Positions 2 through 29,315 of a stretch of 64,000 nucleotides of DNA are shown one piece after another. Every line of letters starts with the position of its first letter. Within the stretch, counting starts at the first letter, position 1. The position numbers were made by a program, and so were the translations under genes. The notes below the pieces were generated by a model, which was not told the origin of the DNA, searched no databases, and saw only the letters and a list, made by a program, of their open reading frames with translations. Source of the stretch: an uncultured Alphaproteobacteria bacterium (GTDB lineage: Bacteria; Pseudomonadota; Alphaproteobacteria; HIMB59; GCA-002718135); NCBI GenBank assembly GCA_902604905.1, contig CACLAN010000002.1:68020-132019 (forward strand). Direction: 5' to 3'.

Positions 2-340
2 ACCGTTGGTAATGATCTCTTAAAAATGACACCAGTGGCAGCATTTATTGTTGTTATATCACATTCTATTGTTTTATTTTTATTTGCATCCCAGGGTATA
101 AGTGCTTTTTTACAATCTATAAATCTTCCCTCTATACCTTTGGTACCAGTATCAAGTTCCCAAGCTGTTGTTGGCGGCGTAATTGGAATTGGTCTTTTAA
201 AAGGAGGAAAAGAGGTTCAATGGTCAATTGCAGGAAGAATTTCTTTGGGTTGGATGACGCTACCTATAATTGCAGCTTTAATTTCTTTAATTGTTTTATT
301 TATTCTAGAAAATATTTTTAATTTAACGGTCTCTTTTTAA
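2..340 (+). CDS. Inorganic phosphate transporter, PiT family (3' part; gene starts before the window)
   Basis: Hydrophobic helices with PVSSSQAVVGGVIGIG and 'W..A.RI..GW..LP', typical of the PiT C-terminal PHO4 repeat; frame is open to the window edge. Confidence 0.8.
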   Translation, partial: TVGNDLLKMTPVAAFIVVISHSIVLFLFASQGISAFLQSINLPSIPLVPVSSSQAVVGGVIGIGLLKGGKEVQWSIAGRISLGWMTLPIIAALISLIVLFILENIFNLTVSF

Positions 341-861
341 TTAACTGCTCGATAAGAAAAAATAAAATCTTCCTGGATTTTAGATTCAATAGCCCCTTTT
401 CTTCTTGATCGCACTAGATCGATAGCTTCTTGTTTTTGATAATTAAATTCAACAAGTAAAATAGCAGCTATGGTGCCAGCCCTTCCTTTGCCTCCACGGC
501 AATGTAAAACTATATTTTTTCCATCTATCAATTCGTTCTTTAATAAAACTTTTGTTGTTTCCCATTTATATTTAAAATCTTTATCTGGTGCTCCCATGTC
601 ATAAATGGGTAAATGGTACCAATGTAATTTATGTTCATAAATATTTTTGACAAACAAAGTTTTATCACACAATTTTTCAAATTCGCTATCTTCAACAAAA
701 GAAGTAATAGAACTACAATTATTATTTTTAAATATTTCTAATTCGTTTGCTAAAATTGTTTCTTCAAATAAACCATTAGAATTAAGACCTGGGAAAGAAG
801 TTAATATAATTTTGCCTGCAAATGACTTAGATTCAATAAAATCATAATTGCTAAATTGCAT
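337..861 (-). CDS. Cys-dependent (PTP/dual-specificity, CDKN3-like) phosphatase
   Basis: HCRGGKGRAG (HCx5R) active-site loop and HLPIYDMGAP general-acid loop. Confidence 0.85.
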   Translation of the reverse strand: MQFSNYDFIESKSFAGKIILTSFPGLNSNGLFEETILANELEIFKNNNCSSITSFVEDSEFEKLCDKTLFVKNIYEHKLHWYHLPIYDMGAPDKDFKYKWETTKVLLKNELIDGKNIVLHCRGGKGRAGTIAAILLVEFNYQKQEAIDLVRSRRKGAIESKIQEDFIFSYRAVN

Positions 862-1431
862 TTACGCTTGTTTAGCTAAAAAAGACTGTCTTGCTTCTTC
901 TAAATAGGAACGAAAATGTTCAACATCGGGAGTTTTTTTATCTAGAATTTTTGCTAAATCATCAAATCTTCTAAGTTCTACTGCTTCATCCATAAAAGGT
1001 TTGCTTATAAACGCTTCTGCTTCTTCTTTTGAGAAAGGACCACCTTGAACTTTTAACGAAAGTTTCGATGCTTCTGATAGACTATCATAATAACCCTCTT
1101 CAACACTTGATAAATATCTTTTTGAATCTACATGTGCTCTGATTGGTAAAATAACATCCTCACCAAAATATTTTTTTAAAAAATCAGCACCTAAATTTTC
1201 ATGATGACCATCTTTCCCTTCATGAATGGGATCGCCGTCCTCATAGATAAGGTGGCCAATATCATGCAGTAATGCTGCAGCAATTGTTGGTCCGGGTAAT
1301 TTATGTTTTTCAGCAAGTTCAGCGCATTGGAGTGCGTGCTCAAGCTGAGTCACATCCTCATTACCATATTGAATATCTGCACCTTTTGTTTTCAAAAGAT
1401 CTAAGAGATAATCCACGATATTTTCTTGCAT
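862..1431 (-). CDS. phnZ: HD-domain di-iron phosphonate oxygenase, PhnZ/TmpB family
   Basis: YGNEDVTQLEHALQ, LLHDIGH, HENLGA, HVDSKRYL, SLKVQGGP and RRFDDLAK motifs; phosphonate gene context. Confidence 0.85.
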   Translation of the reverse strand: MQENIVDYLLDLLKTKGADIQYGNEDVTQLEHALQCAELAEKHKLPGPTIAAALLHDIGHLIYEDGDPIHEGKDGHHENLGADFLKKYFGEDVILPIRAHVDSKRYLSSVEEGYYDSLSEASKLSLKVQGGPFSKEEAEAFISKPFMDEAVELRRFDDLAKILDKKTPDVEHFRSYLEEARQSFLAKQA

Positions 1432-1525: not shown

Positions 1526-2623
1526 ATGGATAAAAAATTATTAACCCCTGGTCCTCTTACGACATCGATGTCAACAAAAGAGGCTATGCTCCATGATTGG
1601 GGTTCAAGAGATACAAAATTTATTGATCTCAATGCATCAATTAGAGATTCCCTTGTTAAATTAATAGACGGTGAAGATAAATATCAATGTGTTCCAATGC
1701 AGGGAAGTGGAACTTTTGCTGTAGAGTCGATGGTGAGCTCTCTTACTCAAAAAGATTCTAAAATTCTGATTCTGATCAATGGTGCTTACGGACAAAGAAT
1801 GAAAAAAATGTGCACTTATTTAGGGAGAGATTTTATTGAATATGAAGTTGCTGAACATGAAGTACATGACATCAATAAAATTGAAGAGTTAATTGATAGC
1901 AACAACTTAACACACGTCTTTGCTGTATATTGTGAAACAACATCGGGTATTTTAAATCCTATTGAAGAGATTGCAAAATTAGTTGAAATGAAAAACTTAT
2001 CGTTATTCATCGATGCAATGAGTGCCTTTGGTGCATTACCCTTAAGTTCTAAAACAATTACTTTTGATGCTGTAGCCGCTTCATCAAACAAATGCTTAGA
2101 AGGTGTGCCAGGTGTTGGTTTCATTCTTGTTAAAAATGAAGTTATTCAAAATGCAAAAGGCAATAGTCACTCACTAAGTCTAGACTTATATGATCAATGG
2201 CAAGCAATGGAAAAAAATAAACAATGGCGATTTACACCTCCAACACATGTATTGGCTGCATTCAATCAAGCGATTGAGGAACATAAAGAACAAGGCGGTG
2301 TAGAGGGACGAGGCAAAAGATATAAAAAAAATTGTGAAATTATTTGTAATGGAATGAAAGAGTTGGGATTTGAGCAACTACTTCCTGATAATTTGCAAGC
2401 ACCAATTATTATTACGTTTAAACAACCTAATGATCCTAAATTTAACTTTGATAAATTTTATAATGCTCTTAGTGAAAAAGATTTTTTAATTTATCCAGGA
2501 AAACTTACAGTGGCAGAAACTTTTAGAATTGGGTGTATTGGTAATTTAGATGAACAAGACATGATGGATACAATAAAAGCTGTAAAAGAAGTCGTTACTG
2601 AATTGGGATTAACATTAAACTAA
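1526..2623 (+). CDS. phnW: 2-aminoethylphosphonate-pyruvate transaminase
   Basis: LLTPGPLTTS, DWGSRD, QGSGTFAVE, CETTSG, DAMSAFG, SSNKCLEG (PLP Lys), QWRFTPPTH, IYPGKLT. Confidence 0.95.
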   Translation: MDKKLLTPGPLTTSMSTKEAMLHDWGSRDTKFIDLNASIRDSLVKLIDGEDKYQCVPMQGSGTFAVESMVSSLTQKDSKILILINGAYGQRMKKMCTYLGRDFIEYEVAEHEVHDINKIEELIDSNNLTHVFAVYCETTSGILNPIEEIAKLVEMKNLSLFIDAMSAFGALPLSSKTITFDAVAASSNKCLEGVPGVGFILVKNEVIQNAKGNSHSLSLDLYDQWQAMEKNKQWRFTPPTHVLAAFNQAIEEHKEQGGVEGRGKRYKKNCEIICNGMKELGFEQLLPDNLQAPIIITFKQPNDPKFNFDKFYNALSEKDFLIYPGKLTVAETFRIGCIGNLDEQDMMDTIKAVKEVVTELGLTLN

Positions 2624-2630
2624 CAAAATA

Positions 2631-3263
2631 ATGACAATTAAAATTGAAATACCTTTAGTTAAAGCAACAAATGAAAATCTTAAAGGATATGGGTATTTAA
2701 TCGATAGTTTTGAAAATAGTGATATTGAAATTGTTACTTGGCCAAAACAAGGATGGCGCGACATAGAAGAGGGAACAGGAAATGAAGGTGGAACTACCGA
2801 AGGTTCTTTTGATACCTGGTGGCAAGGTGATGTGCTTTATGGACAAAATAATGCTGTCCAACATAAAAGTGATTATGAAGTAGATGGAAAATATATACTG
2901 GGTTATGCCAATAATCCTGATCAAGAATTACAAAAAGATAAATATTCAGATCCAACAAAAATATTTCTATGGCATGCAAATTATCATCCTGATGGAGGTC
3001 AGCTTTTCTTTCCTGAAGAAAATAAACCATTTATTTGTCCTTTAGCCTTACCGACAGACGACATTGAACCAGAACATTTTAAAGCATTTTATTGTGATGG
3101 ATCAAAAGGTTTGTATATTCATCCAAACATTTGGCATGAAGGGGTGTTTCCAGTTACAGAAAAACAATCGTTTCAAGGAAAACAAGGTAAAGTACATGCA
3201 AGAGTTAGCATCGACTTAAAAGAGGAATTTAATAAATATATTTATTTTAAAACTGCGATCTAA
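2631..3263 (+). CDS. Ureidoglycolate lyase (AllA)-like cupin protein, function unknown
   Basis: NYHPDGGQLFFP and GLYIHPNIWH metal-binding cupin motifs; starts 7 nt after phnW. Confidence 0.65.
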   Translation: MTIKIEIPLVKATNENLKGYGYLIDSFENSDIEIVTWPKQGWRDIEEGTGNEGGTTEGSFDTWWQGDVLYGQNNAVQHKSDYEVDGKYILGYANNPDQELQKDKYSDPTKIFLWHANYHPDGGQLFFPEENKPFICPLALPTDDIEPEHFKAFYCDGSKGLYIHPNIWHEGVFPVTEKQSFQGKQGKVHARVSIDLKEEFNKYIYFKTAI

Positions 3264-3283: not shown

Positions 3284-4072
3284 ATGAAAATTATTCACCT
3301 TTCAGACCCCCATATTTATATAGATAAGATTCATGGCATAGATCCTGTCAGTAAATTTAAAAAAGCATTAAGTCATTTAAAAAATAATCATGGTGATGCG
3401 GATTTATTTGCCATCACTGGTGATATTACAGACTTAGGTGATAAAGATTCTTATCAGTTATTTATAAAAATAATTGATGAAGCAAATCTGCCAAAGAATT
3501 TAAATCCTCAATTAATTATAGGTAATCATGATAACAGAGATGAGTTTAAAATAAACTTTCCTAATATTGAGACCGATCCAAATGGATTTATTCAATACTT
3601 TAAGGATATAGATAATAAACGTTTAATTTTTATAGATACTAATCTGATTAATACTCACCAAGGACATTATTGTGAAGAGAGGCAAGAATGGTTAAATAAT
3701 ATTTTAAGTAAGACTAATATGGATACGTACATCTTTATGCATCATAATCCACTAGCATTAGTAAAAGAGGAAAGTGATGGAATAGGATTACAACAAAAAA
3801 AAGAGTTTCAACAAATTTTAACTAAAAATAATAAGATAATAAAACATATTTTTTTTGGTCATCAACACATTACAAGTTCTGGTTCTTATTGTGGTATTAC
3901 TTTTTCCTCCCCAAGAAGTACTTGGTCTCCTCTAATACCTAACTTTTCGAATGAATATCGTTTAGGGACAGCAAATACAGATACAAATTATAATGTTGCA
4001 ATAATTCGATCTGACGCTTTAATTATTCATACCGAGGATTTTTTAAAAACAGAAGTTAATTGGTTTAAATAA
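3284..4072 (+). CDS. Metallophosphoesterase, GpdQ/CpdA-like phosphodiesterase
   Basis: All five calcineurin-like motifs present: SDPH, TGDITD, GNHD, MHHNP, FGHQH. Confidence 0.85.
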   Translation: MKIIHLSDPHIYIDKIHGIDPVSKFKKALSHLKNNHGDADLFAITGDITDLGDKDSYQLFIKIIDEANLPKNLNPQLIIGNHDNRDEFKINFPNIETDPNGFIQYFKDIDNKRLIFIDTNLINTHQGHYCEERQEWLNNILSKTNMDTYIFMHHNPLALVKEESDGIGLQQKKEFQQILTKNNKIIKHIFFGHQHITSSGSYCGITFSSPRSTWSPLIPNFSNEYRLGTANTDTNYNVAIIRSDALIIHTEDFLKTEVNWFK

Positions 4073-4075
4073 AAA

Positions 4076-5182
4076 TTATTTTTTTTCGATTACAAATATT
4101 TCATTGTTAAAATAAAGACCTTTATTTTTAGCAACAATTTTTTGAACTACCTTTTCGTAATTTTTTGTTTTTTCTACTTTCATAACTTTATCATCATCCA
4201 TTTGATTGACATATATGGAGGCATTCCAAGCAGAAAAAATTAAGGATGTCGCTATACCTCCACTGATTTCTGTTGGTAGAGCTCTCAGTTTGCATTTAAT
4301 AATTCTTTTTTTTCCAAAAGATAAAGTGCTTAATAAATCTTTATCTAAATTTTTCTTAAGATAAGAAATGATACTATTTCCCAGAGAAGGAAATGGGTCT
4401 TCTTTTGGCCAAATTTTACGAATTATTTCATTAGCAGGATCTTTTCCTGAAGCATGAATAGTTAATAATTTCCCTTTTGATTTTAGCGCTCTAATCATTG
4501 GTTCAATGACATATTTTGATTTCTTTTCTGATGAAATTCTTGAACGATAAGGCTGTGAAGCAATAATAAGATCAAATTTATTATCTGATTTTTTTTTGGT
4601 AGGGATTAATTCATTAACATTAAATTCTTGATCTTCGCGGTAGATAACCATTACTGAAGGCTCTTTATAAGTATGATTACCTGACTTTTTATTAATTTCT
4701 ATATTCCATTTTTTTTCTAAAAATTCATTTTGTTTTCTTAATTGTTGAGCAAATTCAAGAGAAGTGTCACCTTTTAATTTAATAATATTCCAATTAATTT
4801 TTTTCTGTTTAACTTCATTTTTTGATTTTAGGTTTGCGGCTTCCGCGTAGTGTAGATTTGAAATGACAAAAACAGTATTCTTATGCTCAACAAACCTATC
4901 GGGTAATTTTTCTAAACCTAATCTTACATCTTCTATGCTTATTTCTTTTGTGCAAACTAATAGAGGTACGTTAGGCCTAGCTTCGTGGCACTGACGCATT
5001 ACATTCATAAGTAAAGAACCATCCCCCATACCAGCATCAAATATTTTTAAACCAGGTTTTTGAGGCTTAATTTTATTTACGTGAGGACGTATCGCATCGG
5101 CAATTTGATTTTTTTCATTTGTTGTAGTTACAAATAATAAATATTTTTGTCTGTTATCATAAAACCTGAAATTTTTTTTCAT
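4076..5182 (-). CDS. Conserved hypothetical protein with class I SAM-dependent methyltransferase-like fold
   Basis: IFDAGMGDG motif-I-like and FDLIIASQPY motif-IV-like segments. Confidence 0.55.
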   Translation of the reverse strand: MKKNFRFYDNRQKYLLFVTTTNEKNQIADAIRPHVNKIKPQKPGLKIFDAGMGDGSLLMNVMRQCHEARPNVPLLVCTKEISIEDVRLGLEKLPDRFVEHKNTVFVISNLHYAEAANLKSKNEVKQKKINWNIIKLKGDTSLEFAQQLRKQNEFLEKKWNIEINKKSGNHTYKEPSVMVIYREDQEFNVNELIPTKKKSDNKFDLIIASQPYRSRISSEKKSKYVIEPMIRALKSKGKLLTIHASGKDPANEIIRKIWPKEDPFPSLGNSIISYLKKNLDKDLLSTLSFGKKRIIKCKLRALPTEISGGIATSLIFSAWNASIYVNQMDDDKVMKVEKTKNYEKVVQKIVAKNKGLYFNNEIFVIEKK

Positions 5183-5184
5183 TA

Positions 5185-6297
5185 CTAATAAAGTCCCATT
5201 GATTTAGCAGAAGAGATGAAGGCTTCTTTATTGCCAATAAAGTTTTTACCTCGTTCCCCTAAAAACGCATCATCTACTATATTATTCCATTCTTGAACAG
5301 GAACTTTTATTTCATTTAAGTTAAGAGGAACCTCTAAAGAACGCATAAATTCACTCAGATGATTTGCGGCATTCTCTAGGTTATCGTTAAAAATTAATTT
5401 TAGTCTTTCTTCAGCTACACTATCAATTCCAACCATACTTTTAGTAATCATCGGTAAAGTAAATGAACAAGCAATACCATGCTGAATACCGTAATTAAGT
5501 GTCACAGGGTATGATAGATTGTGCGCAATAGCAGTTTTCGTATTGGAAAACGCTAAGCCAGCATGAACGCACGCCAATGCAATCTTTGAGCGTAATACAA
5601 CATTTCTTAAATCTTTAGTGAGAAGTGGTAAATTTTCTAATACTAATTTTGATGCTTGTATTGCATGAGAAGCAGAAATTGGGTTCGCATTAATATTCCA
5701 AATACTTTCCATCGAATGGGAGAGAGCATCTAAACCAGTTGAAATGGTCAAGCCTAAAGGCTTATCAACCATAATAGATGGATCAATAATTGCTTTTTCA
5801 GCATAAAGAGATTTCTGAGCCAAAGATAATTTGTTGTTTTTTTCTTTATCCCAAATTGTGGCCCAACACGTAAGCTCACTTGATGTTCCTGAAGTTGTAG
5901 GTATTGCAATAATCTTAATTGGATTTTCGACTCTTGGACTTTTCTTATTGCGAACGAAATCTGTTAGGTATTCTTGTTTATCTTTAAATGCAGCAATTGC
6001 TTTAGCTGTGTCTGTAACAGAGCCACCACCTATAGCTAAAATATAATCTACCGATTCATTGATTAAAGAAAATTTTTTTTGTAGCTCTAAAATATCCTTA
6101 TAATCTGGATTAGGCTGAACATCCGTCATAATGGATAAGGGTGGATTTGAAGAAGATTTTAATTCATCGCTATATTTTTTAAAAATTTCTTCTGGATGAG
6201 TGATAATGATGTAGTTCTTATTTTTAAGAGCATCATGTACTTCTTTAAATCTATTTTCTCCAAAGATTATTTCAACTGGGTTAAAATAGTTCCACAT
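5185..6297 (-). CDS. Iron-containing alcohol dehydrogenase, phosphonate-associated (phosphonoacetaldehyde reductase/HEP dehydrogenase-like)
   Basis: AIGGGS, PTTSGTSSE, DALSHSMES, AHNLSY and HGIAC Fe-ADH motifs; TCWATIWD and AFSNTKTA segments recalled from the phosphonate-linked subfamily. Confidence 0.8.
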   Translation of the reverse strand: MWNYFNPVEIIFGENRFKEVHDALKNKNYIIITHPEEIFKKYSDELKSSSNPPLSIMTDVQPNPDYKDILELQKKFSLINESVDYILAIGGGSVTDTAKAIAAFKDKQEYLTDFVRNKKSPRVENPIKIIAIPTTSGTSSELTCWATIWDKEKNNKLSLAQKSLYAEKAIIDPSIMVDKPLGLTISTGLDALSHSMESIWNINANPISASHAIQASKLVLENLPLLTKDLRNVVLRSKIALACVHAGLAFSNTKTAIAHNLSYPVTLNYGIQHGIACSFTLPMITKSMVGIDSVAEERLKLIFNDNLENAANHLSEFMRSLEVPLNLNEIKVPVQEWNNIVDDAFLGERGKNFIGNKEAFISSAKSMGLY

Positions 6298-6301
6298 TAT
6301 A

Positions 6302-7381
6302 TTAAATTGATTTAGCAGCTTTTGTTAAAATAGACATTTTTTCAATTGCTTGTTCTCTTGTAAAAAAACCTAATCCACAATCAGGAGCTGCAATTAAACG
6401 ATCTTCATCAATATGCTCTAAAGAATCTTTCATACGAACTCTAACTTCTTCTACTGTCTCCATTCTGCTTTTAGCAATGTCAATAAATCCAAAAATAACT
6501 TTTGTTTTTGTAAATTTTTCTAAAAGATTTAAGTCATTATGTCTGTGGGAGTCTTCTAAGGATACTTCGTCAATTGTAGAGTCATCTACTAAAGTAGCAA
6601 TTCTATCATAAGCATCTAATTCTGCTTTCTTGTATCCATGAGAATCTAAGGAATTTGGATAACCACAACAGATATGACAAACTCGTTGAACTTCTTTTGG
6701 AATACCATGCATCATTCTTTCCAAGTTTTCCATACCATAAGCATTGGCCTCATCGGGTTTTCTTGCAAAAACTGGTTCATCAATTTGGATATATTGACAA
6801 CCAGCATCAGCTAGAGCTTTTACCTCTTTGTTTAGAGCCAAAGCTAAATCAAAACCAAGTTTTTTCATGTCATCATAGTAATTGTTGGCAATTGAATCTG
6901 TAATTGTCATTGGTCCAGGTAGCGTAATTTTAACTGGGTTTTTTGTAAATTGTTGTGCACTCTTCCAGTCTAGATGCATACGTATTTCTTTACTTGAAAT
7001 TGGAGCTACTATCGTTGGAAGATCAGCTTCAAAGGCTCCTTGCCGTACAGATTTATGAGTTACCTCTTTAAAACTTACACCATTTAAAAAACGACATTGA
7101 TATAAGACATAACTTTCACGTCTTACTTCTCCATCAGTTGGAACATCAATTCCCGCATTTACCTGATCAATAATAACTTCTTTAATTGCTTCTAAAAATA
7201 ATTTTTCTGCTTCTTCACCTGCTGACTCTAATGCCTTTTCATAAGCACCTGGAGACCAATTAGATAAAAGTCCTTTTGAAGCTTTTCTCTCTTCTTCTGA
7301 TTTTGTCCCTAAAAACCAATCTTGAATGGGTGTTTGTTTCGGTTTTGGATATGCACCTATAGTAGTAGTTGTAAGAGGCAT
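6302..7381 (-). CDS. Core (single-barrel) cobalamin-independent methionine synthase-like Zn enzyme
   Basis: TTTIGAYPKP, PTDGEVRRE, KITLPGPMT, IQIDEP, HICCG and APDCGLG Zn ligands; lacks the N-terminal MetE folate-binding barrel. Confidence 0.8.
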   Translation of the reverse strand: MPLTTTTIGAYPKPKQTPIQDWFLGTKSEEERKASKGLLSNWSPGAYEKALESAGEEAEKLFLEAIKEVIIDQVNAGIDVPTDGEVRRESYVLYQCRFLNGVSFKEVTHKSVRQGAFEADLPTIVAPISSKEIRMHLDWKSAQQFTKNPVKITLPGPMTITDSIANNYYDDMKKLGFDLALALNKEVKALADAGCQYIQIDEPVFARKPDEANAYGMENLERMMHGIPKEVQRVCHICCGYPNSLDSHGYKKAELDAYDRIATLVDDSTIDEVSLEDSHRHNDLNLLEKFTKTKVIFGFIDIAKSRMETVEEVRVRMKDSLEHIDEDRLIAAPDCGLGFFTREQAIEKMSILTKAAKSI

Positions 7382-7411
7382 GACTTATTCTCCCAAATAT
7401 CTTAAAATAAA

Positions 7412-7436
7412 ACAGCGGCTTTTATAAAGCCGCTGT
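7412..7436 (-). terminator. Intrinsic terminator or stabilising hairpin after the SBP gene
   Basis: ACAGCGGCTTT-tat-AAAGCCGCTGT, perfect 11-bp stem, followed by TTTATTTT on the minus strand. Confidence 0.75.
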
Positions 7437-7463
7437 AATAAAAAGTTAACAATAAAGTAATCT

Positions 7464-8717
7464 CTATAAAAGATCCTCTATTTCTTCCATCATCTCCTCT
7501 TGGAGATCAGCCATATTGTCTGCACTACCTGTAGCAATTTCTTCAGTGTAATCATAGATTACCTGAGTTATTGCTAGACCGTTTTCACCAGGATATGCAA
7601 ACCAATCAGCCAATAAAGGTAATTGATTTACTGCAGTTAGCTTGTTTGGATTTTTAGTATAAAAATCACCTAACAAATCATTGGCTGCTTTATTTGGTGG
7701 AACATATCCAGTAGTTTCAGCAACTAAAGCTGCACCTATACCAGAAGTGATAAACTTTAAGAAAGTCCATGCAGCATCTACTCTAGCTGGATCATCAGAT
7801 GTAGAAACCAACATCGCAGCATTTCCACCCGCTGGAAGTCTCGCTGGGGTTCCTCCATTTACACCTGGCATTCCTGGAAATGGTGCTGTTTTAAGTTCAA
7901 AATCTGCTTTGGCTGCGTTCACTGAACCTAAGCTTGATGTTGACCAGAAAAACATACCAATTGTGCCTGCATTAAATGCAGCTTGACCGTCAGCAATTGA
8001 ATAGTTTGGCATATTACAACCACTCATTATGTCATGCATTTGTTGTAAAGTTGCTAGACCAGCATCTCCACCCATATTAACAGCACCATCTTTTACCATT
8101 GGAACATTTTGGGTATGCATTAATGCTTGGTGAAACCAGTTACCTGTAATATTCCAACCAAAATATAAAGTTCCTTTACCTGCTGCTTCCAATTTATTAC
8201 AAGCTGCGATAACTTCGTCCCAGTTAGTTGGGATGTTATCTATACCTGCTTCAGCTAATAGATCCATGTTATAGTATCCAACTGGTGTTGATACAGAAAA
8301 TGGTAACCCATATACGTCACCACCAAAGGTGGATAGACTTAACATAGCAGAGTGATAACCATCTTTTTCAAAGTCAGCTTCTCCTGCAATAAAAGGCTCT
8401 AATGATTTTGCAATCCCTTTATCAACAAGTGGTGCTTGTCTGTTAAGACCTTGCATTGTTACATCTGGTAAATTACCTGAAGTAGACTCTCTGAAGATTG
8501 TTGCAGTTGCATCTTCATAGTTTTCATAAGTTGCCCTAAATTTAACTTGAATATCTGGATGTGCTTTTTCAAACTCTGGCATAATAGCTTGAAACGTAAC
8601 GTCAAATAATCCAGAGTAAGGATAAGCTACTTCTATTTCAATAGACTTAGCTGAATTAACAGAACCATAAAAACCAAAAGCTAGTACGGCTGCCAATCCT
8701 GTAATTAATTTTTTCAT
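7464..8717 (-). CDS. ABC transporter substrate-binding protein, CUT1/UgpB-like
   Basis: Signal peptide; GLPFSVSTPVGYYNMDLL, PTNWDEV, AAWTFLKF and TGYVP family-1 SBP motifs. Confidence 0.85.
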   Translation of the reverse strand: MKKLITGLAAVLAFGFYGSVNSAKSIEIEVAYPYSGLFDVTFQAIMPEFEKAHPDIQVKFRATYENYEDATATIFRESTSGNLPDVTMQGLNRQAPLVDKGIAKSLEPFIAGEADFEKDGYHSAMLSLSTFGGDVYGLPFSVSTPVGYYNMDLLAEAGIDNIPTNWDEVIAACNKLEAAGKGTLYFGWNITGNWFHQALMHTQNVPMVKDGAVNMGGDAGLATLQQMHDIMSGCNMPNYSIADGQAAFNAGTIGMFFWSTSSLGSVNAAKADFELKTAPFPGMPGVNGGTPARLPAGGNAAMLVSTSDDPARVDAAWTFLKFITSGIGAALVAETTGYVPPNKAANDLLGDFYTKNPNKLTAVNQLPLLADWFAYPGENGLAITQVIYDYTEEIATGSADNMADLQEEMMEEIEDLL

Positions 8718-8856: not shown

Positions 8857-10299
8857 TTACCAAGGTAGTGAAAAGGTTTTTACATTAGTAAAACTTTTCA
8901 TTGCTTCAATAACACCCTCTTTGTAACCAAGACCTGAATCTTTAATTCCTCCGAAAGGAGACATTTCAATTCTGTAGCCTGGAACCTCCCAAATATTTAC
9001 CGTACCAACATTTAAACCTTGAATATATTTTTTTGCTCGCATGAAGTTGTTTGTACATACTCCAGATGATAATCCGAATGCGGTTGAATTAGATATTTTC
9101 ATTACAGCTTCATCGTCATTAGGTACTCGAATAATTGGGATAACTGGACCAAATGTTTCTTCTAAAACTAATTCACTTTTAGGATCAACATGATCTACAA
9201 CTATTGGAGGTAACAAAGCACCTTTTCTTCCAGGGTGATATAAAATTTTAGCGCCATCTTCTTCAGCCATAGAAACTCTTTTATCAAAAAGTTCTGCTGC
9301 TTCAGCATTAACAACAGTACCTAAGTCTGTTTCCAAATTCATAGGATCGCCAAATTTAATTTTTTTAGCACGCTCAAGAGCCATTTCGACAAATTGATCT
9401 GCAATAGATTCTTGCACTAATATCCTTTTAACAGCTGTACAACGTTGGCCAGAGTTTTTCGTTGCTCCAGTAACAGCTAGCTCAACAGCTTTTTTAAGAT
9501 CATCATCATCTAAGTCATTTAAAACAATTAATGGATCATTACCACCAAGCTCGAGAACTGTTCTTTTGTATCCAGCTTGTTCAGCAATTAGTTTTCCTAC
9601 ACCTACACTGCCTGTAAAAGTAATGAGATCAATATTTGGATTTTTGATCATTTCAGATCCAATATCTTGTGGCCATCCAGTTACAACTGAAAACATTTCT
9701 GGTGGCAAACCTGCTTCATATAAAACATCAGCGAGTACCATTGCTGTTAAAGGTGTTAATTCTGTCTGCTTACATACTGTACAATTATTAGTAGCAATTG
9801 AAGGCGCAATTTTATGCGCTACCATATTCAAAGGATGATTAAATGGAGTGATTGCTGAGATTGCCGTTAAAGGTTCTCTTATGGTAAATATTTTTCTGGC
9901 TTTTCCATGTGGAGTTAAATCACAAGAAAATATTTCTCCATCATCAAGAATACAAAGTTGAGCCGTTAATGAAAATACATCGAAAGCTCTTCCTACTTCG
10001 TATAGAGAATCTTGTTTTGAGATACCAAGTTCTAAAGTAATAATATCAGAAATTTCTTCTTTTCTTTTAACAAGTACTTCTGCAGCAGTTTGAAGAATTT
10101 TTTGTCTCTCATATCTTGTAAGTTTAGGTTGGTAATTTGCAGCAATATCTAAAGCCTTTCTTGCATGCTCTGCAGTACCTGCTGGAACCGTTCCGATTAC
10201 TTCACCTGTAAAAGGGTACTCAACATTTATTGTTTTATCTGAAGTAACTTTTTCTCCAGCTATACGCATTGCTTCATTAATCATTTTTTTGTGCATCAT
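8857..10299 (-). CDS. phnY: Phosphonoacetaldehyde dehydrogenase
   Basis: ALDH motifs [34 protein letters not shown]; CDLTPHGK and WEVPGYRIE PhnY signatures; overlaps phnA. Confidence 0.93.
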
Positions 10300-11537
10300 A
10301 GGGCTCCGTTAATTGCATAATAAAATGCATCATAGTTATATAATTGTCTGCTAGTATCTATATTTTGTAATTTTAAATTTGATATGAATGGCACTTCTCT
10401 TTCATGAAGTCCACCGTGTGAACGTAAAGGTTCATTTAATCCAGAAAGATTGTGTTTATCTTCAGATGAACCAATGGTCATAAATTCTGAAGACATACAT
10501 ATTATGTCTCCCATTCTATCAGGGGGTAAGTTATAAGTAGAGCATCCTTCGTCTTTTGTTAAAACAACTTCTATATCTTTTATTTCTTTGATAGCATTTA
10601 CAACTGAATCTACCTTACTTTTGTCTTCTAAATAAATTGTTGCAAAAGAACCAAGTGAACCATGATGCACGACATATGGATCTGTAATTGGTAGAATAAC
10701 TTTAGCCATGTTTGGTTTAAATTTATTATCTAAATAATCTTGTAAAAATATTGCATTAGGTGAACCGTCTTCTTTTGATTTTGGTTTCATACCGTGATCT
10801 GCTGTAATGATTATAGAAACATTCTCCTTATTTAAAAGACCAATATATTTATCAAACATTGCATAAAATTTATTTGCTGTTTCATTTCCTGGTGCATATT
10901 TATGTTGAATATAATCCGTAGTCGATAAATACATGATATTTGGTTTGAACTCTTCAAGAAGCTTTACACCTGCAGCCATTACAAATTCAGAAAGTCCTTC
11001 AGAGTATACTTCTGGCACTGGCATTCCCAACCAATCGTTTACATTATCTATACCATTGAGATCTTTTGTTGCTTGATCAGATTTTTCGGCAGAAAAACAA
11101 ATAGCTCTCTCATCATCAAAACTTAATCCGTTTCCTAAAAGTGTTCTCAGCTTATCTTTTGCAGTAACAAGAGCAATTTTAGAACCAGAATTGTAAAATT
11201 TTTCAAAAATAGTTGGTGCTCGCATATATTTTGGGTCATTCATCATTACTTCTTCACCAGTCTCGGGTGTATAAAAAAAGTTTCCGCATATACCGTGAAC
11301 AGAACTTGGCTGCCCAGTTACAATGGAAATATTATTAGGATTTGTAAAACTTGGAATAGCGCTGTGAACAAGTAGATTTTCACCACTTGCAATTAGTTTA
11401 TCAAGATTTGGTGTAAGATTTGATTTTGATGCTTCGTCGAGATACTCTTTTTGACTACCATCAAGACATATAACAATAGCAGTTTTTGAGAAAGAGCTTG
11501 GATATTCTCTTTTATTAATTTCTAAATTATCGGACAC
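10296..11537 (-). CDS. phnA: Phosphonoacetate hydrolase
   Basis: [13 protein letters not shown] (catalytic Thr), [32 protein letters not shown]; GTG start. Confidence 0.95.
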
Positions 11538-11714: not shown

Positions 11715-12854
11715 GTGGGCACAATATCACTTAAAAATATTTCAAAGTCATTTGGATCTACGCAAGTATTAAACAATTTAAATGTTGATATACAAAATGG
11801 CGAATTTTTAACATTAGTTGGTCCATCTGGTTGTGGTAAATCTACGTTACTTCGAATCATTGCAGGATTAGAACAGCAAACTTCAGGCGATGTATTAATT
11901 GATAATAAGAATGTAAATAAAATTAGAGCCAGCGAGCGAGATCTTGCAATGGTATTTCAATCATACGCTTTATATCCACATTTAACGGTACGAAGAAATT
12001 TAGAAACACCTCTAAGACTGAGAGATTATAATGCTTTTGAACGCCTTCCTTTAATAGGGAATTTTTCTCCAAACAAAAAAAGTAAAACTGAGTCTATCAA
12101 TAAATTAGTTAATAAAACATCTGAAACACTTCAGATTTCTGAACTACTGGATAGAAAACCAGGACAATTATCAGGAGGTCAAAGACAAAGAGTAGCTCTT
12201 GGTCGCGCAATGGTAAGAGAACCTGTTGCATTCTTAATGGATGAACCGCTGTCAAATTTAGATGCCGCTCTAAGAGTGCATATGCGATCCGAATTATCGG
12301 AACTTCACAATTCACTTAAAACAACATTTGTTTATGTAACGCATGATCAAGCAGAAGCATTGACAATGTCTTCTCGTATGGCGGTAATGATTGATGGAAA
12401 TTTATTACAACTGGATACACCTCAAGAAGTATATGATAATCCTTCATCATTAAGTGTTGCTCAATTTGTTGGTAGTCCTAAAATAAATATTTTTAATGGA
12501 TCTTCAGATTCTAGTGGAACTGTTAATTTTTTAAATGTTAACCTGAAAAGAAAAAGTTCTGAAAATAATTCAGATTTACACATTGGAATTCGACCAGAAC
12601 ATTTAGAAATTACTAATGATAAAAATGAAAACACATTTAGTGGAACTGTTGCTTACAGAGAAAATTTAGGATCAGATATATACTTCCATGTTAATATAGA
12701 AGACAACTCAAAAAAAATAATTGTAAGGGGCTTACCTCAATTTACACATCAAATTACAAATGGTTCAAGTGTGAATATCAAGAGAGATTCAAATAAAGCA
12801 TTGTTATTTAATCAAAAAGGGATGAGGATTCATTTTAATAATGCAATGGTATAA
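11715..12854 (+). CDS. ABC transporter ATP-binding protein, CUT1 (MalK/UgpC-like)
   Basis: GPSGCGKST, VFQSYALYPH, LSGGQRQR, DEPLSNLD, VTHDQ; C-terminal TOBE-like domain. Confidence 0.92.
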   Translation: MGTISLKNISKSFGSTQVLNNLNVDIQNGEFLTLVGPSGCGKSTLLRIIAGLEQQTSGDVLIDNKNVNKIRASERDLAMVFQSYALYPHLTVRRNLETPLRLRDYNAFERLPLIGNFSPNKKSKTESINKLVNKTSETLQISELLDRKPGQLSGGQRQRVALGRAMVREPVAFLMDEPLSNLDAALRVHMRSELSELHNSLKTTFVYVTHDQAEALTMSSRMAVMIDGNLLQLDTPQEVYDNPSSLSVAQFVGSPKINIFNGSSDSSGTVNFLNVNLKRKSSENNSDLHIGIRPEHLEITNDKNENTFSGTVAYRENLGSDIYFHVNIEDNSKKIIVRGLPQFTHQITNGSSVNIKRDSNKALLFNQKGMRIHFNNAMV

Positions 12855-12869
12855 GGATAACATTTACTA

Positions 12870-13826
12870 ATGCATAATTCAAAGGCTCATCTATGGTTTA
12901 TTGCCCCTGCAATAATACTCATGATAATTATTTTAATCTTTCCTCTTTTTCTTGCAGGTGGAATTTCCTTTACTGATTATAATTTAGGCAACAAAACATT
13001 TGAATGGATTGGGTTAGAGAACTATGACAAAATGTTTAACCGAAAAACTTATGTGAAGATGATTTGGGCAACAGCCACGTATGTAATTGTTGTGGTGCCT
13101 ATTTCAGTTATACTTGGTTTATGTGCAGCGATGCTCTTAAATTCTCTACGATTTGGTGCTGACATATATAAAACTATTTTCTTTCTTCCAGTTATGGCGA
13201 CGCTTCTGGCAATGGCTATTGCTTGGGAATTCACTCTTCACCCAACTCTTGGGATAGTAAATAATTTTTTAGCTAATGGTTGTGGTGGTGCAAGAGAATT
13301 TATTTTTGGTTTTCATTGGTTGCCATGGGTAGACTCTGAACAAAGTTGGTATGCAGTGGCGTGTGCAAATAACATGGACTTTCCTTATTGGTTAAAACAA
13401 AAAAATACTGCAATTTGGACTGTTTGTTTTATTGGAATATGGCAAGCCTTTGGTTTCAATATGGTTTTATATTTAGCTGGATTAACAGGTATACCAAGAG
13501 AACTATATCAAGCTGCAGAAATGGATGGAGCTAAATCAACATGGGAACAATTTAAACTTGTAACATGGCCAATGCTTGGTCCAACAACTTTATTTGTTGT
13601 AACCATAACGACTATTAGAACCTTTCAAGTTTTTGATACAATTGAAATACTCACAAAAGGTGGTCCATCTAAAACAACCTACGTTATGATGTATGCAATT
13701 TTTGAAAAAGCTATTCAACAAAATTTAACAAGTATTGGTGCAGCTATCACAGTTGTCTTCATTGGATTTATATTGATATTAACTTTCTTCCAAAGATATA
13801 TCATTGAGAAAAGGGTTCATTATTAA
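12870..13826 (+). CDS. ABC transporter permease, CUT1 (UgpA/MalF-like)
   Basis: TM helices; WIGLENY; EAA-like loop LYQAAEMDGA; TKGGP. Confidence 0.9.
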   Translation: MHNSKAHLWFIAPAIILMIIILIFPLFLAGGISFTDYNLGNKTFEWIGLENYDKMFNRKTYVKMIWATATYVIVVVPISVILGLCAAMLLNSLRFGADIYKTIFFLPVMATLLAMAIAWEFTLHPTLGIVNNFLANGCGGAREFIFGFHWLPWVDSEQSWYAVACANNMDFPYWLKQKNTAIWTVCFIGIWQAFGFNMVLYLAGLTGIPRELYQAAEMDGAKSTWEQFKLVTWPMLGPTTLFVVTITTIRTFQVFDTIEILTKGGPSKTTYVMMYAIFEKAIQQNLTSIGAAITVVFIGFILILTFFQRYIIEKRVHY

Positions 13827-14719
13827 TGGAAGCTAAACAGTATATTGGTGAAGGTTGGAAACATGCAATATTGATTATTGGTGCAATTGTTGTGTTGTTG
13901 CCTTTTTATATGATGGTTTCAATGTCATTAAAATCTCAACAAGAAATTCAATCTATTTCTGGAGGTCTCATTGGTGCACAAGAAACTCAAACATTTCCCG
14001 TATGTGTAAAAACTGGATACTCAGAAGAAGAATGCACAATGAAACCATATAAATACAACTATTGGTTTGCTTTCGAAAAGGCTCCCATTCCAAGATACTT
14101 GATGAATGGTGTTATTGTAACTTTATCAATTTTTATCATTCAGGTTCTTGTAGCCTTACCGTGTGCCTACGCTCTGGCCAAACTTAGATTTTATGGACGA
14201 GAGTTTGTTTTCTCCATGGTGTTATTTTGTTTACTCATCCCAGTGCATGGAATTGCACTTCCACTTTACGTCATGCTTGCTCAGGCAGGTTTGGTCGATA
14301 CCTATTCCGCCTTAATACTGCCCTGGACAATATCGGTGTTTGGAATTTTTCTAATGCGGCAATTCTTTATGACAGTCCCAGATGAATTAATTGACGCCGC
14401 CAGGATGGATGGAATGGGAGAGTATGCTATAGTCTGGAAAGTAATGCTTCCAACTGCGATACCAGCATTACTTGCCTTTGCTATTTTCTCAGTAGTTGCA
14501 CACTGGAATGATTATTTCTGGCCTCGAATGGTAATTACTGGAAATAGAGATCTCTTTACACCACCTCTTGGTATCAGAGAATTTAGAGGTGGAATTGATA
14601 GTGATGAGTTTGGTCCAATGATGGCTTCAATTGTTACAGTTACAGTACCTCTCATTGTTGCTTTTATAATCGCACAAAAAAGATTTATTGAAGGAATTAC
14701 TTTAACAGGAATGAAGTAA
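13826..14719 (+). CDS. ABC transporter permease, CUT1 (UgpE/MalG-like)
   Basis: CAYALAK, IFLMRQFF, ELIDAARMDG, WNDYFWP, QKRFIEG. Confidence 0.9.
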   Translation: MEAKQYIGEGWKHAILIIGAIVVLLPFYMMVSMSLKSQQEIQSISGGLIGAQETQTFPVCVKTGYSEEECTMKPYKYNYWFAFEKAPIPRYLMNGVIVTLSIFIIQVLVALPCAYALAKLRFYGREFVFSMVLFCLLIPVHGIALPLYVMLAQAGLVDTYSALILPWTISVFGIFLMRQFFMTVPDELIDAARMDGMGEYAIVWKVMLPTAIPALLAFAIFSVVAHWNDYFWPRMVITGNRDLFTPPLGIREFRGGIDSDEFGPMMASIVTVTVPLIVAFIIAQKRFIEGITLTGMK

Positions 14720-14728
14720 GATAGTCTT

Positions 14729-15571
14729 TTGTCTATCAATTTTATTTTTCTTTTAATTATTTTATCTGCACTGTGTCACGCTATTTGGAGCGCCATAATT
14801 AAATCAAGTAAGAACCCTTTATCGTTAATGGGTATAACGTCTGTCTTAGAGGTTACTATTTTTTTACCTTTAACATTTACTGTTCCATTTCCAACTTTAG
14901 AGGTTTGGTATTTTTTAATTGCAACCGTTATCATTCATGTTTTTTATAGATTGAATGTAATTTATTCTTATAGGTACGGTGACTTGTCCTACATTTATCC
15001 AATCTCTAGGGGAAGTTCATGTCTATTTGTTGCTATCATTAGTATTTTGTTTTTAAGTTCAGATATTAGTGTTGCTGGCTTTATTGGAATATTAATTGTT
15101 TGTATTGGTTTATTTTTAATATCGTATTCGAAAAATTTATCTTTTAACTTTAGAGGTTTTGCTCTTGCGATTTCAACTGCTATTTTAATTACTGCATATA
15201 CTTTAGTTGACGGAGTCGGAGTTAGGCTTTCGGAAAATGGTTTTTCATATATTTATTGGCTCTTCGCACTTAATGGAATACCTTTACTAATTATTGGTTT
15301 GATCTCGAAAAATGGTTTACGAAAAAGAGAAACATACACATTTAGATCAGGGATTGCTGCTGGTGTATTTGCAACAAGTAGTTACGCAATTGTTGTTTGG
15401 AGTATGCAATTTATAGAAATAGCGTATGTCTCTAGTATCAGAGAAATCAGTATTGTTTTTGCCGCTATTATTGGAATGGTTTTTTTATTTGAAAGAAATG
15501 CTAAATCGAGAATAATCCCATCTATTTTAATAGTAAGTGGTATTTCGGTGGTTTATTTTCAAATTCTTTAG
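14729..15571 (+). CDS. EamA/DMT transporter resembling the phosphonate-utilisation-associated DMT family
   Basis: About 10 TM helices; HAIW, YRYGDLSYIYPISRG, YTLVDG, REISIVF; TTG start. Confidence 0.75.
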   Translation: MSINFIFLLIILSALCHAIWSAIIKSSKNPLSLMGITSVLEVTIFLPLTFTVPFPTLEVWYFLIATVIIHVFYRLNVIYSYRYGDLSYIYPISRGSSCLFVAIISILFLSSDISVAGFIGILIVCIGLFLISYSKNLSFNFRGFALAISTAILITAYTLVDGVGVRLSENGFSYIYWLFALNGIPLLIIGLISKNGLRKRETYTFRSGIAAGVFATSSYAIVVWSMQFIEIAYVSSIREISIVFAAIIGMVFLFERNAKSRIIPSILIVSGISVVYFQIL

Positions 15572-27236: not shown

Positions 27237-27247
27237 TTGGTTATAAA

Positions 27248-29267: not shown

Positions 29268-29279
29268 TCCAGTTTAGCA

Positions 29280-29303
29280 GTGTGGCTTTATACAAAGCCA
29301 CAC
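29280..29303 (-). terminator. Intergenic hairpin after the DUF4856-like gene (partial terminator or stabiliser)
   Basis: GTGTGGCTTT-atac-AAAGCCACAC, 10-bp perfect stem without a strong U tract. Confidence 0.55.
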
Positions 29304-29315
29304 CATAATATTCAA

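Follow-up and report, generated by a model that had tools for sequence, protein, structure and literature searches.

Canonical MetE, the two-barrel methionine synthase, depends on 5-methyl-tetrahydrofolate-triglutamate, and betaine-homocysteine methyltransferase (BHMT) takes a methyl group from a quaternary N-methyl donor. Among single-barrel relatives, MesA, MesB and MesC, from anaerobes with methanogenesis or the Wood-Ljungdahl pathway, use a methylated corrinoid protein as donor. Another, MesD, is reported to need both MesX and oxygen (Price et al. 2021, PMC7857596). In cosmopolitan marine bacteria, core-MetE homologues carrying four conserved residues have been reported, and their function has been called questionable; the same report states that SAR11 bacteria lack MetE, MetH and MtgC, a corrinoid protein that is not encoded in Pelagibacteraceae, and that they depend on BHMT or external methionine (PMC12478193). 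Here, we analyse a gene of this kind at positions 6302..7381 (minus strand) of a 64,000-nucleotide stretch of DNA, hereafter the window, from an uncultured alphaproteobacterium of the HIMB59 lineage (GenBank assembly GCA_902604905.1, contig CACLAN010000002.1, positions 68,020 to 132,019). It encodes a core-MetE-like protein, a candidate zinc-dependent homocysteine S-methyltransferase, within an island of genes for the uptake and breakdown of phosphonates and phosphate esters. The gene is a real feature, belonging to a distinct clade of a known superfamily and reproducibly tied to phosphonate and phosphoester scavenging. We tentatively propose, at somewhat less than an even chance, that the enzyme is a homocysteine S-methyltransferase whose methyl donor derives from the imported phosph(on)ate. 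The literature covered, which did not extend to subscription journals or supplementary tables, held no published link between phosphonate clusters and a Meth_synt_2 protein or cobalamin-independent methionine synthase.

The open reading frame starts with ATG and reads from 7381 to 6302 on the minus strand to encode 359 amino acids; the plus-strand frame of the same interval contains many stops. Pfam places the protein in Meth_synt_2 (PF01717; E 1.1e-35, 123.9 bits, cut-off 21), with residues 52-357 matching positions 26-323 of the 324-position profile, and also returns a sub-threshold URO-D match. The Meth_synt_1 folate barrel (PF08267) has no Pfam match in this protein, and a search for a separate PF08267 barrel in five island-bearing genomes yielded nothing beyond weak cross-matches (21-31 bits) to the core paralogues. 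The characteristic motifs are HICCGYP at residues 236-242 (H236, C238, C239, Y241), E276, and PDCG at residues 333-336 (P333, D334, C335, G336). An original prediction, made from the DNA letters alone, had described a single-barrel MetE-like zinc protein with just these motifs (HICCG...E...PDCG) and with the folate-binding half missing, and both statements are borne out. Its placement of the gene between a substrate-binding protein (SBP) gene and an iron alcohol dehydrogenase (Fe-ADH) gene, with a 4-nt gap to the latter, was also correct; the strand, which it left unstated, is minus.

Residue invariance was scored in an alignment of 31 family rows. The zinc ligands H236, C238, E276 and C335 are invariant in 31/31 rows and align with the zinc motif of the solved structures 3RPD and 1T7L. 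Structure 3RPD is MesD with zinc and selenomethionine, in which the ligand is contacted by Ser22, Glu73, Asp188 and a MesD-specific Tyr226 that meets the substrate carboxylate (PMC7857596). The equivalents of Glu73, Asp188 and Tyr226 are E85, D201 and Y241, and these too are invariant in all 31 rows. Given that the Glu, Asp and Tyr contacts of MetE and MesD are unchanged, homocysteine alkylation giving methionine, as had been suggested beforehand, is the natural reading. Six residues near the zinc ligands are consistently unlike those of MesD (R87, C239, D277, H279, R280 and D334); two acidic and three basic or histidine residues beside the zinc would suit a zwitterionic donor, to judge from the sequence.

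The protein falls short of the cut-off of every NCBIfam methionine-synthase model. The best NCBIfam model is NF006589 (200 bits, cut-off 392), and the other NCBIfam 'methionine synthase' models score 115-192 bits, each below its own cut-off. MesX was sought as DUF1852 (PF08908) in an order sample of 251 genomes from one alphaproteobacterial order, in which homologues of the window protein were accepted at 1e-60 or better; one genome, G625, was positive. NF006589 is the MesD model, because the gene adjoining MesX in G625 scores 687.5 bits on it. The window protein is 31% identical to this MesX-adjacent MesD, and its closest solved structure is 3RPD (161 bits). Membership of MesD was set by Price et al. 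at about 55% identity (PMC7857596). MesX itself was not found in the genome of the window (59% complete), nor in another five genomes with the island, nor in any of the 22 order-sample genomes that encode a homologue, and it does not occur among the annotated neighbours of family genes. The window protein and MesD are both single Meth_synt_2 barrels of about 350 amino acids from aerobic bacteria with the same zinc ligands, Glu/Asp contacts and MesD-type Tyr. In contrast to the MesD/MesX pair, the partners of the window protein are a GpdQ-like esterase, a ureidoglycolate-lyase-like (UGL-like) protein and an S-adenosylmethionine (SAM) methyltransferase. With canonical MetE the protein shares a homologous catalytic barrel and the same zinc and homocysteine residues, whereas it has half the length and lacks the Meth_synt_1 barrel; the canonical model TIGR01371 reaches 90.3 bits against a cut-off of 929.95 and matches with its C-terminal half only. 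BHMT is alike only in the proposed chemistry, in which a quaternary ammonium zwitterion methylates a zinc-activated homocysteine thiolate and neither folate nor cobalamin is needed, but it belongs to a different family, and the window protein has no match to PF02574.

The original prediction had called for a phylogeny. A maximum-likelihood tree of 30 rows that included MesD places the window protein in an orthologue group (support 100/99) together with the two SAR11-type island forms, a Rhodospirillales metagenome-assembled genome and four Hyphomicrobiales-type sequences. The sister of this group is a SAR11 paralogue (90/92), and the two are nested in a broader family of ~50% relatives. The branches leading to MesD and to two distant SAR11 paralogues are very long, which makes their exact placement unsure. 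The family is small, as a 50%-clustered library of 1.84 billion proteins holds 144 representatives at E <=1e-30. Judged by these comparisons, the window protein belongs to a small separate clade of a known superfamily, related to MesD yet distinct from it.

The MetE-like gene heads a run of closely spaced genes. Four nucleotides (6298-6301) separate its stop from the start of a PhpC-type Fe-ADH gene (5185..6297, minus strand), whose product is a probable 2-hydroxyethylphosphonate (HEP) dehydrogenase (TIGR03405, 361 bits, cut-off 424). PhpC-type Fe-ADHs oxidise HEP to phosphonoacetaldehyde and occur in catabolic clusters with PhnX or with PhnY-PhnA (Piazza et al. 2026, PMC13576164). Two nucleotides past the Fe-ADH begins the gene for a 368-aa protein with a SAM-methyltransferase fold (4076..5182, minus strand). 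This protein has no Pfam and no NCBIfam family match. Its AlphaFold2 model (predicted local distance difference test, pLDDT, 85) finds histamine N-methyltransferase as its best Foldseek match (E 2e-11), and all of its top matches are class I SAM methyltransferases; rank 9 is 9e72, a phosphonate-binding methyltransferase. It has 4535 relatives at E <=0.001, with the invariant motifs FDAGxGDG and IASQ, the latter followed by a near-invariant Pro, which recalls the (D/N/S)PP(Y/F) motif of amino-group methyltransferases.

Upstream of the MetE-like gene, at a distance of 82 nt, lies the gene for a UgpB-like (CUT1) periplasmic SBP (7464..8717, minus strand; SBP_bac_1/8; UgpB model 67 bits, cut-off 411), whose nearest PDB entries are sugar and glycerol-3-phosphate binders. 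Between the two genes is a terminator-like hairpin (7412..7436, minus strand) with an 11-bp stem of 6 GC pairs followed by a T run, which suggests that the MetE-like gene forms a tight sub-unit with the ADH and methyltransferase genes. A hairpin directly past the SBP gene would suit a much higher output of binding protein than of enzymes. A promoter scan gave 32 sites, no more than the 34.2 of shuffled sequence.

The remainder of the island supplies the phosphonate context. PhnY phosphonoacetaldehyde dehydrogenase (8857..10299, minus strand; TIGR03250, 797 bits, cut-off 636) and PhnA phosphonoacetate hydrolase (10296..11537, minus strand; TIGR02335, 467 bits, cut-off 408) lie further upstream, and divergent from phnA are an ATP-binding cassette (ABC) ATPase and two permeases assigned by family matches as UgpC/UgpA/UgpE-like (11715..14719, plus strand). 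On the other side of the three-gene unit, on the plus strand, are a GpdQ/SpdA-like metallophosphodiesterase (3284..4072; Metallophos, SpdA model 173 bits against 400), the UGL-like protein (2631..3263; PF04115, 4e-10) and PhnW 2-aminoethylphosphonate (AEP):pyruvate transaminase (1526..2623; NF010006, 512 bits, cut-off 296). The closest PDB entries of the esterase are 2zo9 and 2dxl, which we take to be the glycerophosphodiesterase GpdQ. Protein-atlas look-ups return only 'ureidoglycolate hydrolase' and 'methyltransferase family protein' clusters. The GC content is 0.31-0.35 and even throughout the island. With PhnW, PhnY and PhnA all above their cut-offs, the phosphonate context proposed from the letters alone is confirmed; the genes named there stand, and the hairpin, the SAM-methyltransferase gene and the UGL-like gene had been missed. 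The co-occurrence of Fe-ADH, PhnY-PhnA and a transporter is that of PhpC-type HEP clusters (PMC13576164). Unlike this island, the clusters in the main text of that report are not accompanied by any mention of a methionine-synthase-like, methyltransferase or cobalamin gene (PMC13576164).

This arrangement recurs. Among the best 80 of 540 confirmed relatives in a species-representative genome collection, 61 loci (group A, at least 80% identity) hold the island of the window, and 14 loci (group B: L065 and 13 type-B loci at ~71%) hold PhnA-PhnY-SBP-MetE-like-FeADH, so that the SBP-MetE-like-FeADH core occurs with PhnY and PhnA in 75 of the 80. Fe-ADH follows the MetE-like gene within 40 nt in all 74 SAR11-type loci that hold it. 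The methyltransferase-fold gene is present in 58/61 group-A loci, as a 34-39% relative in 12 type-B loci and as a 72% relative in L065. The 13 type-B loci lack the UGL-like gene, as well as the HD gene found at the edge of the window island. Type-B loci (e.g. L068:62-2775) instead encode an M24 protein nearest to the dimethylsulfoniopropionate (DMSP) lyase DddP (374 bits, cut-off 600); they also hold an SMR-type quaternary-ammonium exporter.

Linkage to the same types of genes extends beyond the SAR11-type loci. Two of the five non-SAR11 orthologue loci, L074 and L075, show in order a LysR gene, a Ugp-like ABC system whose SBP is 61-63% identical to that of the window, a GpdQ/SpdA-like esterase and the MetE-like gene, and L075 also encodes a 43% relative of the methyltransferase-fold protein; a third, L069, is a GlpR-Ugp cluster with an EEP-family phosphoesterase. 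Four of the five genomes have PhnA elsewhere, in PhnA-PhnY clusters, two of them with PhnW. In the order sample, a homologue is present in 22 and PhnA in 49 of the 251 genomes; PhnA is found in 15/22 homologue-bearing genomes against 34/229 others, as raw counts not corrected for relatedness, and in 13/20 when the previously known positives G401 and G405 are set aside. A phylum-wide sample gave one homologue-bearing genome in 400 others, i.e. the gene is rare there, and its context (L137) is uninformative.

Eighteen wider contexts were compared, 17 from the 25 order-sample places (two duplicates and six short contigs were excluded) and one from the phylum sample. Eight of the 18 have a GpdQ/SpdA-like esterase gene close by (SpdA model, 220-260 bits), and it adjoins the MetE-like gene in L126, L128, L132, L133, L135, L136 and L139. 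In L127, from a Hyphomicrobiales-type genome, LysR and a MetE-like gene (51% homologue) diverge from PhnW (515 bits) and PhnX (339 bits, cut-off 220), with an esterase as third gene. PotABCD-like amine importers occur in 7/18 contexts, BetA-subfamily choline dehydrogenase (617-626 bits, cut-off 605) in 4/18, a BHMT-family methyltransferase with Fe-ADH and aldehyde dehydrogenase in 2/18 and PhoX in 1/18. A profile of the methyltransferase-fold protein found 0 relatives in the 18 Hyphomicrobiales-type contexts, and this protein is thus no general partner of the wider family. The phosphonate linkage recurs, with two different C-P hydrolase systems: the 75/80 loci, PhnW-PhnX in L127 and the co-occurrence with PhnA all link homologues to phn genes, the absence of which would have spoken against the original prediction.

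Some of these contexts hold further features. L124 (L124:3303-13453) and L125 contain a PotABCD-like importer, a MetE-like gene (51% homologue), a BHMT-family gene directly beside it, an aldehyde dehydrogenase and an Fe-ADH nearest to 4-hydroxybutyrate/choline dehydrogenase models; the cluster looks as if it served to degrade an N-methylated amino alcohol, and it places two different homocysteine methyltransferases next to each other. G405 carries two identical copies of the orthologue (L138/L070; G405:C3, G405:C2) beside an IS630-type transposase fragment, as well as a third ~49% paralogue that adjoins an esterase and PhoX (L132).

The island gene is not the only core-MetE relative in these genomes. 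Its distribution was assessed in 46 other genomes of the same family with completeness of at least 80%. The orthologue (at least 89% identity) is present in 26/46, all of one genus, and is therefore accessory, whereas a ~50% paralogue is present in 38/46. The latter fits poorly with statements that SAR11 have no MetE-type enzyme. In the window genome this paralogue (G000:C29:3652-4752, L086) is 48% identical and adjoins a PehA-like phosphonate-monoester/sulfate-ester hydrolase. In eight further genomes (L167-L174), alanine dehydrogenase and an (omega-)aminotransferase adjoin it in 8/8; the PehA-like hydrolase is present in 3/8 of these loci and was rejected as a fixed neighbour. The window genome encodes two more distant Meth_synt_2 paralogues, one (G000:C19:3663-4691, L087; 26%) inside an L-rhamnonate dehydratase/mutarotase/sugar-ABC cluster and one (G000:C12:505-1632, L088; 22%) beside two family-less proteins and a histidinol-dehydrogenase-like gene.

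These observations can be combined into a model for the function of the island. The Ugp-like ABC system would import a phosph(on)ate ester, which the GpdQ-like diesterase could split, and the phosphonate would be mineralised via PhnW, Fe-ADH, PhnY and PhnA. As the first gene of a tightly packed three-gene unit (core-MetE, PhpC-type HEP dehydrogenase, SAM-methyltransferase-fold protein), the MetE-like gene would provide an enzyme that binds L-homocysteine and activates its thiol at the His-Cys-Glu-Cys zinc site. It would then take a methyl group from a small donor, without folate, without MesX and presumably without a corrinoid, to yield methionine. The donor would probably be a methylated onium compound delivered by the phosphonate pathway. 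In this way, methionine would gain methyl groups through phosphorus scavenging, and would do so in bacteria that reportedly have neither MetE nor MetH. We infer that the reaction is a methyl transfer, as well as its direction and the identity of the donor. Any mechanism must also explain the recurrent partners of the enzyme, namely the SAM methyltransferase, the UGL-like protein and the GpdQ-like esterase.

As to the donor, N-methylated AEPs and methyl phosphonate esters had been put forward in the original prediction, and both are chemically reasonable guesses. Chemically, the best precedent is that for a quaternary N-methyl donor, which is what BHMT uses; such a donor agrees with the N-methylated AEPs of the original prediction, and also with the amine importers, choline dehydrogenases and BHMT genes found near members of the wider family. 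On a rough split within our overall confidence, the leading guesses are N,N,N-trimethyl-2-AEP or another N-methyl-AEP, an unlikely but plausible donor, and a betaine- or choline-type head group or product, which is slightly less probable; other donors account for the remainder. N-methylated AEPs are also acted upon by TmpA/TmpB and by the mono- and dimethyl-AEP oxidases PbfC/PbfD. These routes differ in being oxidative and conserving no methyl group, and the island has no TmpA-type or FAD oxidase gene. Trimethyl-AEP is reported not to be a substrate of PbfC/D, with TmpAB as its only described route (PMC10590968). Two other donors were considered and dropped. Methylphosphonate as a direct donor, by C-P cleavage through a thiolate, was rejected on our own chemical reasoning that phosphite is a very poor leaving group; O-demethylation of a methyl sugar, suggested by the paralogue in the rhamnonate cluster, was set aside as chemically unprecedented without a corrinoid.

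Several observations weigh against methyl transfer from a phosphonate-derived donor. For trimethyl-AEP to become the PhnW substrate, a second and a third N-demethylation would be needed, and the island encodes neither an FAD oxidase nor any other enzyme for them. The invariant neighbour of the MetE-like gene is an alcohol dehydrogenase for HEP, a compound devoid of methyl groups. In the 13 type-B islands, the MetE-like gene is kept without PhnW, the esterase or any amine enzyme. Within 10 kb, L070 and L071, two of the five non-SAR11 orthologue loci, show no phosphonate or ester context, and 7/22 homologue-bearing genomes of the order sample are without PhnA. A BHMT-family gene is present in four of the five island-bearing genomes, in which a betaine donor would hence be redundant; no such gene was found in the window genome, which is incomplete. 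Set against the homocysteine contacts of the E. coli enzyme that were used for comparison (Ser433, Glu484 and Asp599), the third contact, Ser433, is replaced by Ala in 27/31 rows and is Ser in four, MesD included. Seawater metatranscriptomes speak for the proposal rather than against it: 14 runs contain 37-54% of the words sampled from positions 4076-8717, and contigs from four runs of four studies cover the three-gene unit, one of them (5016-6397) crossing both of its junctions and others spanning 4476-5538 and 5777-6618; such contigs attest presence and bridging and are no proof of a transcript, its strand or its level. The SBP gene shows a much greater contig depth than the three-gene unit, in numbers that cannot rank genes, and parts left uncovered in run X6 carry no meaning.

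A last point against a phosphonate-derived donor leads to the alternative that we consider the best of the rest, if still unlikely: a SAM-consuming methyltransferase beside a methionine-forming enzyme can be read as simple upkeep of the SAM cycle. The co-operonic methyltransferase would carry out a key SAM-dependent step, and the core-MetE enzyme would re-methylate the resulting homocysteine from a general cellular or environmental donor (glycine betaine, DMSP or S-methylmethionine) unrelated to phosphonates. The position of the methyltransferase-fold gene 2 nt past the ADH in the same unit is in favour, as are its co-conservation in 58/61 group-A loci, 12 type-B loci, L065 and L075 and the reported lack of MetE and MetH in SAR11 (PMC12478193). 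A fusion points the same way, as the MetE-like barrel of the 46% identical relative P0248 (625 aa) is followed by a C-terminal class I SAM methyltransferase domain. That domain is unlike the island methyltransferase in sequence beyond motif I, and the N-terminus of P0248 resembles a signal peptide. However, SAM-cycle upkeep leaves the pairing with GpdQ-like esterases and the UGL-like protein unexplained where the methyltransferase is absent, as in all 18 wider contexts. Furthermore, the ~50% paralogue in 38/46 family genomes would already serve housekeeping, and BHMT is already present in four of the five island-bearing genomes.

Other fusions bring the UGL-like protein into focus. A search limited to longer proteins found three fusions. 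P0243 (643 aa) joins an N-terminal part with 46% identity to the UGL-like protein of the island to a C-terminal part with 43% identity to the MetE-like protein. When metagenomes were scanned with P0243, 21 loci were recovered, of which 19 encode a stand-alone UGL-like protein and two are fused: L146:96-2048 is an intact UGL-like::MetE-like open reading frame of 650 aa, and L147:36-1994 shows the same architecture at 56% identity with a frame break at 719/747. Both lie on ~2-kb contigs with a GC content of 0.55-0.61, and we suspect a eukaryotic origin, possibly as plankton transcripts. Two independent fusions, UGL-like::MetE-like and MetE-like::SAM-methyltransferase, mirror two genes of the window island. 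Two further architectures were seen, a polysaccharide pyruvyl transferase joined to a MetE-like part in P0242 (715 aa) and a partial MetE-like barrel with a TENA/THI-4/PQQC domain in P0313 (495 aa).

From these fusions arises a second alternative, which we regard as rather improbable. The UGL-like protein would be a MesX-like partner that makes or presents the donor, from which the core-MetE enzyme passes the methyl group to homocysteine; the donor step might be an oxygen-dependent one on a phosphonate, performed together with the PhnZ/TmpB-like HD-domain phosphonate oxygenase encoded at 862..1431 on the minus strand (TIGR03276, 201 bits, cut-off 215; TmpB model 157 bits, hydroxymethylphosphonate dioxygenase model 155 bits). 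Apart from the two fusions, which are 56% identical to one another, a two-component enzyme is supported by the presence of the UGL-like gene in 58/61 group-A islands and by its distribution in the order sample, in which six of the eight genomes with a UGL-like gene are also MetE-like-positive compared with 16 of the other 243. In G405 the UGL-like gene adjoins a pyridoxal phosphate enzyme of Cys/Met metabolism, and four marine metagenome loci (L148, L149, L153 and L154) combine a stand-alone UGL-like gene with genes for a PhnZ-like HD protein, an ABC ATPase and a PhpC-type ADH. The HD genes of L148 and L153 score 124-130 bits on the PhnZ model, and L148 (4922-11451) also holds PhnC, PhnD, two PhnE, an ADH at 429.5 bits (cut-off 423.7) and a phn-type LysR gene; no PhnY*-type dioxygenase, PhnX or PhnA was seen on these four contigs. 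One possibility is that HD oxygenases of an oxidative HEP route have the UGL-like protein as a partner that has so far gone unnoticed. The reported need of MesD for MesX and oxygen provides a precedent (PMC7857596). On the other hand, the UGL-like gene is absent from 16/22 homologue-bearing genomes and from all 13 type-B islands, the fusions come from short contigs of unnamed origin, with the frame of L147 broken, and the AlphaFold model of the UGL-like protein (pLDDT 46.5) is too poor to use in a fold search. More doubtful again is the specific proposal that this clade and the UGL-like protein form a second two-component methionine synthase like MesD/MesX, with the methyl group drawn from a phosphonate-derived compound such as trimethyl-AEP or a UGL-like/HD-oxygenase product from HEP. 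Among the invariant residues of the UGL-like protein are H119, D121, H164, H169 and W168; in one order-sample genome, its gene lies between a pair formed by a FAD oxidoreductase and a class V aminotransferase on one side and a LysR gene on the other.

A third alternative retains the phosphoesters and dispenses with amines. Here, the zinc-bound homocysteine thiolate would attack a methyl phosphonate or phosphate ester at its O-methyl carbon and free the acid for the esterase, ADH, PhnY and PhnA, much as the zinc thiolate of Ada attacks methyl phosphotriesters. Phosphodiesterases of four folds recur near family genes (GpdQ-like, NPP-type in L074, EEP in L069 and PehA-like beside the paralogue), a HEP-centred island without an amine step fits, and the structural neighbour 9e72 of the methyltransferase-fold protein binds phosphonate. 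Ester demethylation is nevertheless improbable, as an esterase could remove the methyl group hydrolytically, the PotABCD-type importers and choline-dehydrogenase neighbours indicate N-methyl compounds instead, and we know of no natural O-methyl phosphonate substrate in seawater. The least probable alternative is a non-methyl thiol alkylation after the manner of epoxyalkane:CoM (coenzyme M) transferase, in which a thiol would be added to or removed from a two-carbon phosphonate (an epoxide, a vinyl compound or a 2-substituted ethylphosphonate) en route to HEP: the MetE superfamily does include a thiol-epoxide transferase, a HEP-type dehydrogenase invariably adjoins the gene and the DddP-like M24 protein of type-B loci hints at onium elimination chemistry, but the invariant amino-acid-binding Glu, Asp and Tyr argue for homocysteine and a methionine-like product, such a phosphonate thioether is to our knowledge without example, and the conserved contacts and gene contexts appear to lend no support to an assignment to the epoxyalkane:CoM transferase XecA, which acts on CoM in place of an amino-acid thiol and belongs to epoxide-carboxylation operons.

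The window contains further genes around the island. At the island edge, next to the HD oxygenase gene, a dual-specificity-phosphatase-like protein (337..861, minus strand; PTP-SAK/DSPc) is encoded in 50/61 group-A loci and is co-conserved with the oxygenase. At the opposite end, the Ugp-like permease genes are followed by one for an EamA-type membrane protein of a 'phosphonate utilization associated' family (14729..15571, plus strand; TIGR03340, 143 bits, below the cut-off of 288). A second transporter cluster at 24580-30695 comprises an ABC ATPase (292 bits on the PhnT2 model, cut-off 458), a fused double permease, an SBP with weak similarity to the AEP-binding protein (59 bits) and, after these, fatty-acid-hydroxylase-family and DUF4856 proteins.

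SAR11-type genomes therefore carry two core-MetE relatives, the ~50% paralogue in 38/46 genomes and the accessory one of the phosphonate island in 26/46. If methyl groups are harvested from methylated phosphonates or phospholipid head groups, as we tentatively propose, this would represent a new methyl donor for methionine synthesis and a non-oxidative entry for trimethyl-AEP, for which only TmpAB has been described, and one-carbon and sulfur metabolism would be connected with the marine phosphorus redox cycle. If a two-component synthase with the UGL-like protein draws on a phosphonate-derived compound, the ocean's most abundant heterotroph would obtain the methyl groups of methionine directly from phosphonate scavenging, in a methyl cycle closed by the co-operonic SAM methyltransferase. 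The clade is a tractable relative of MesD, an enzyme for which the methyl source has yet to be established, and gene fusions define its candidate partners.

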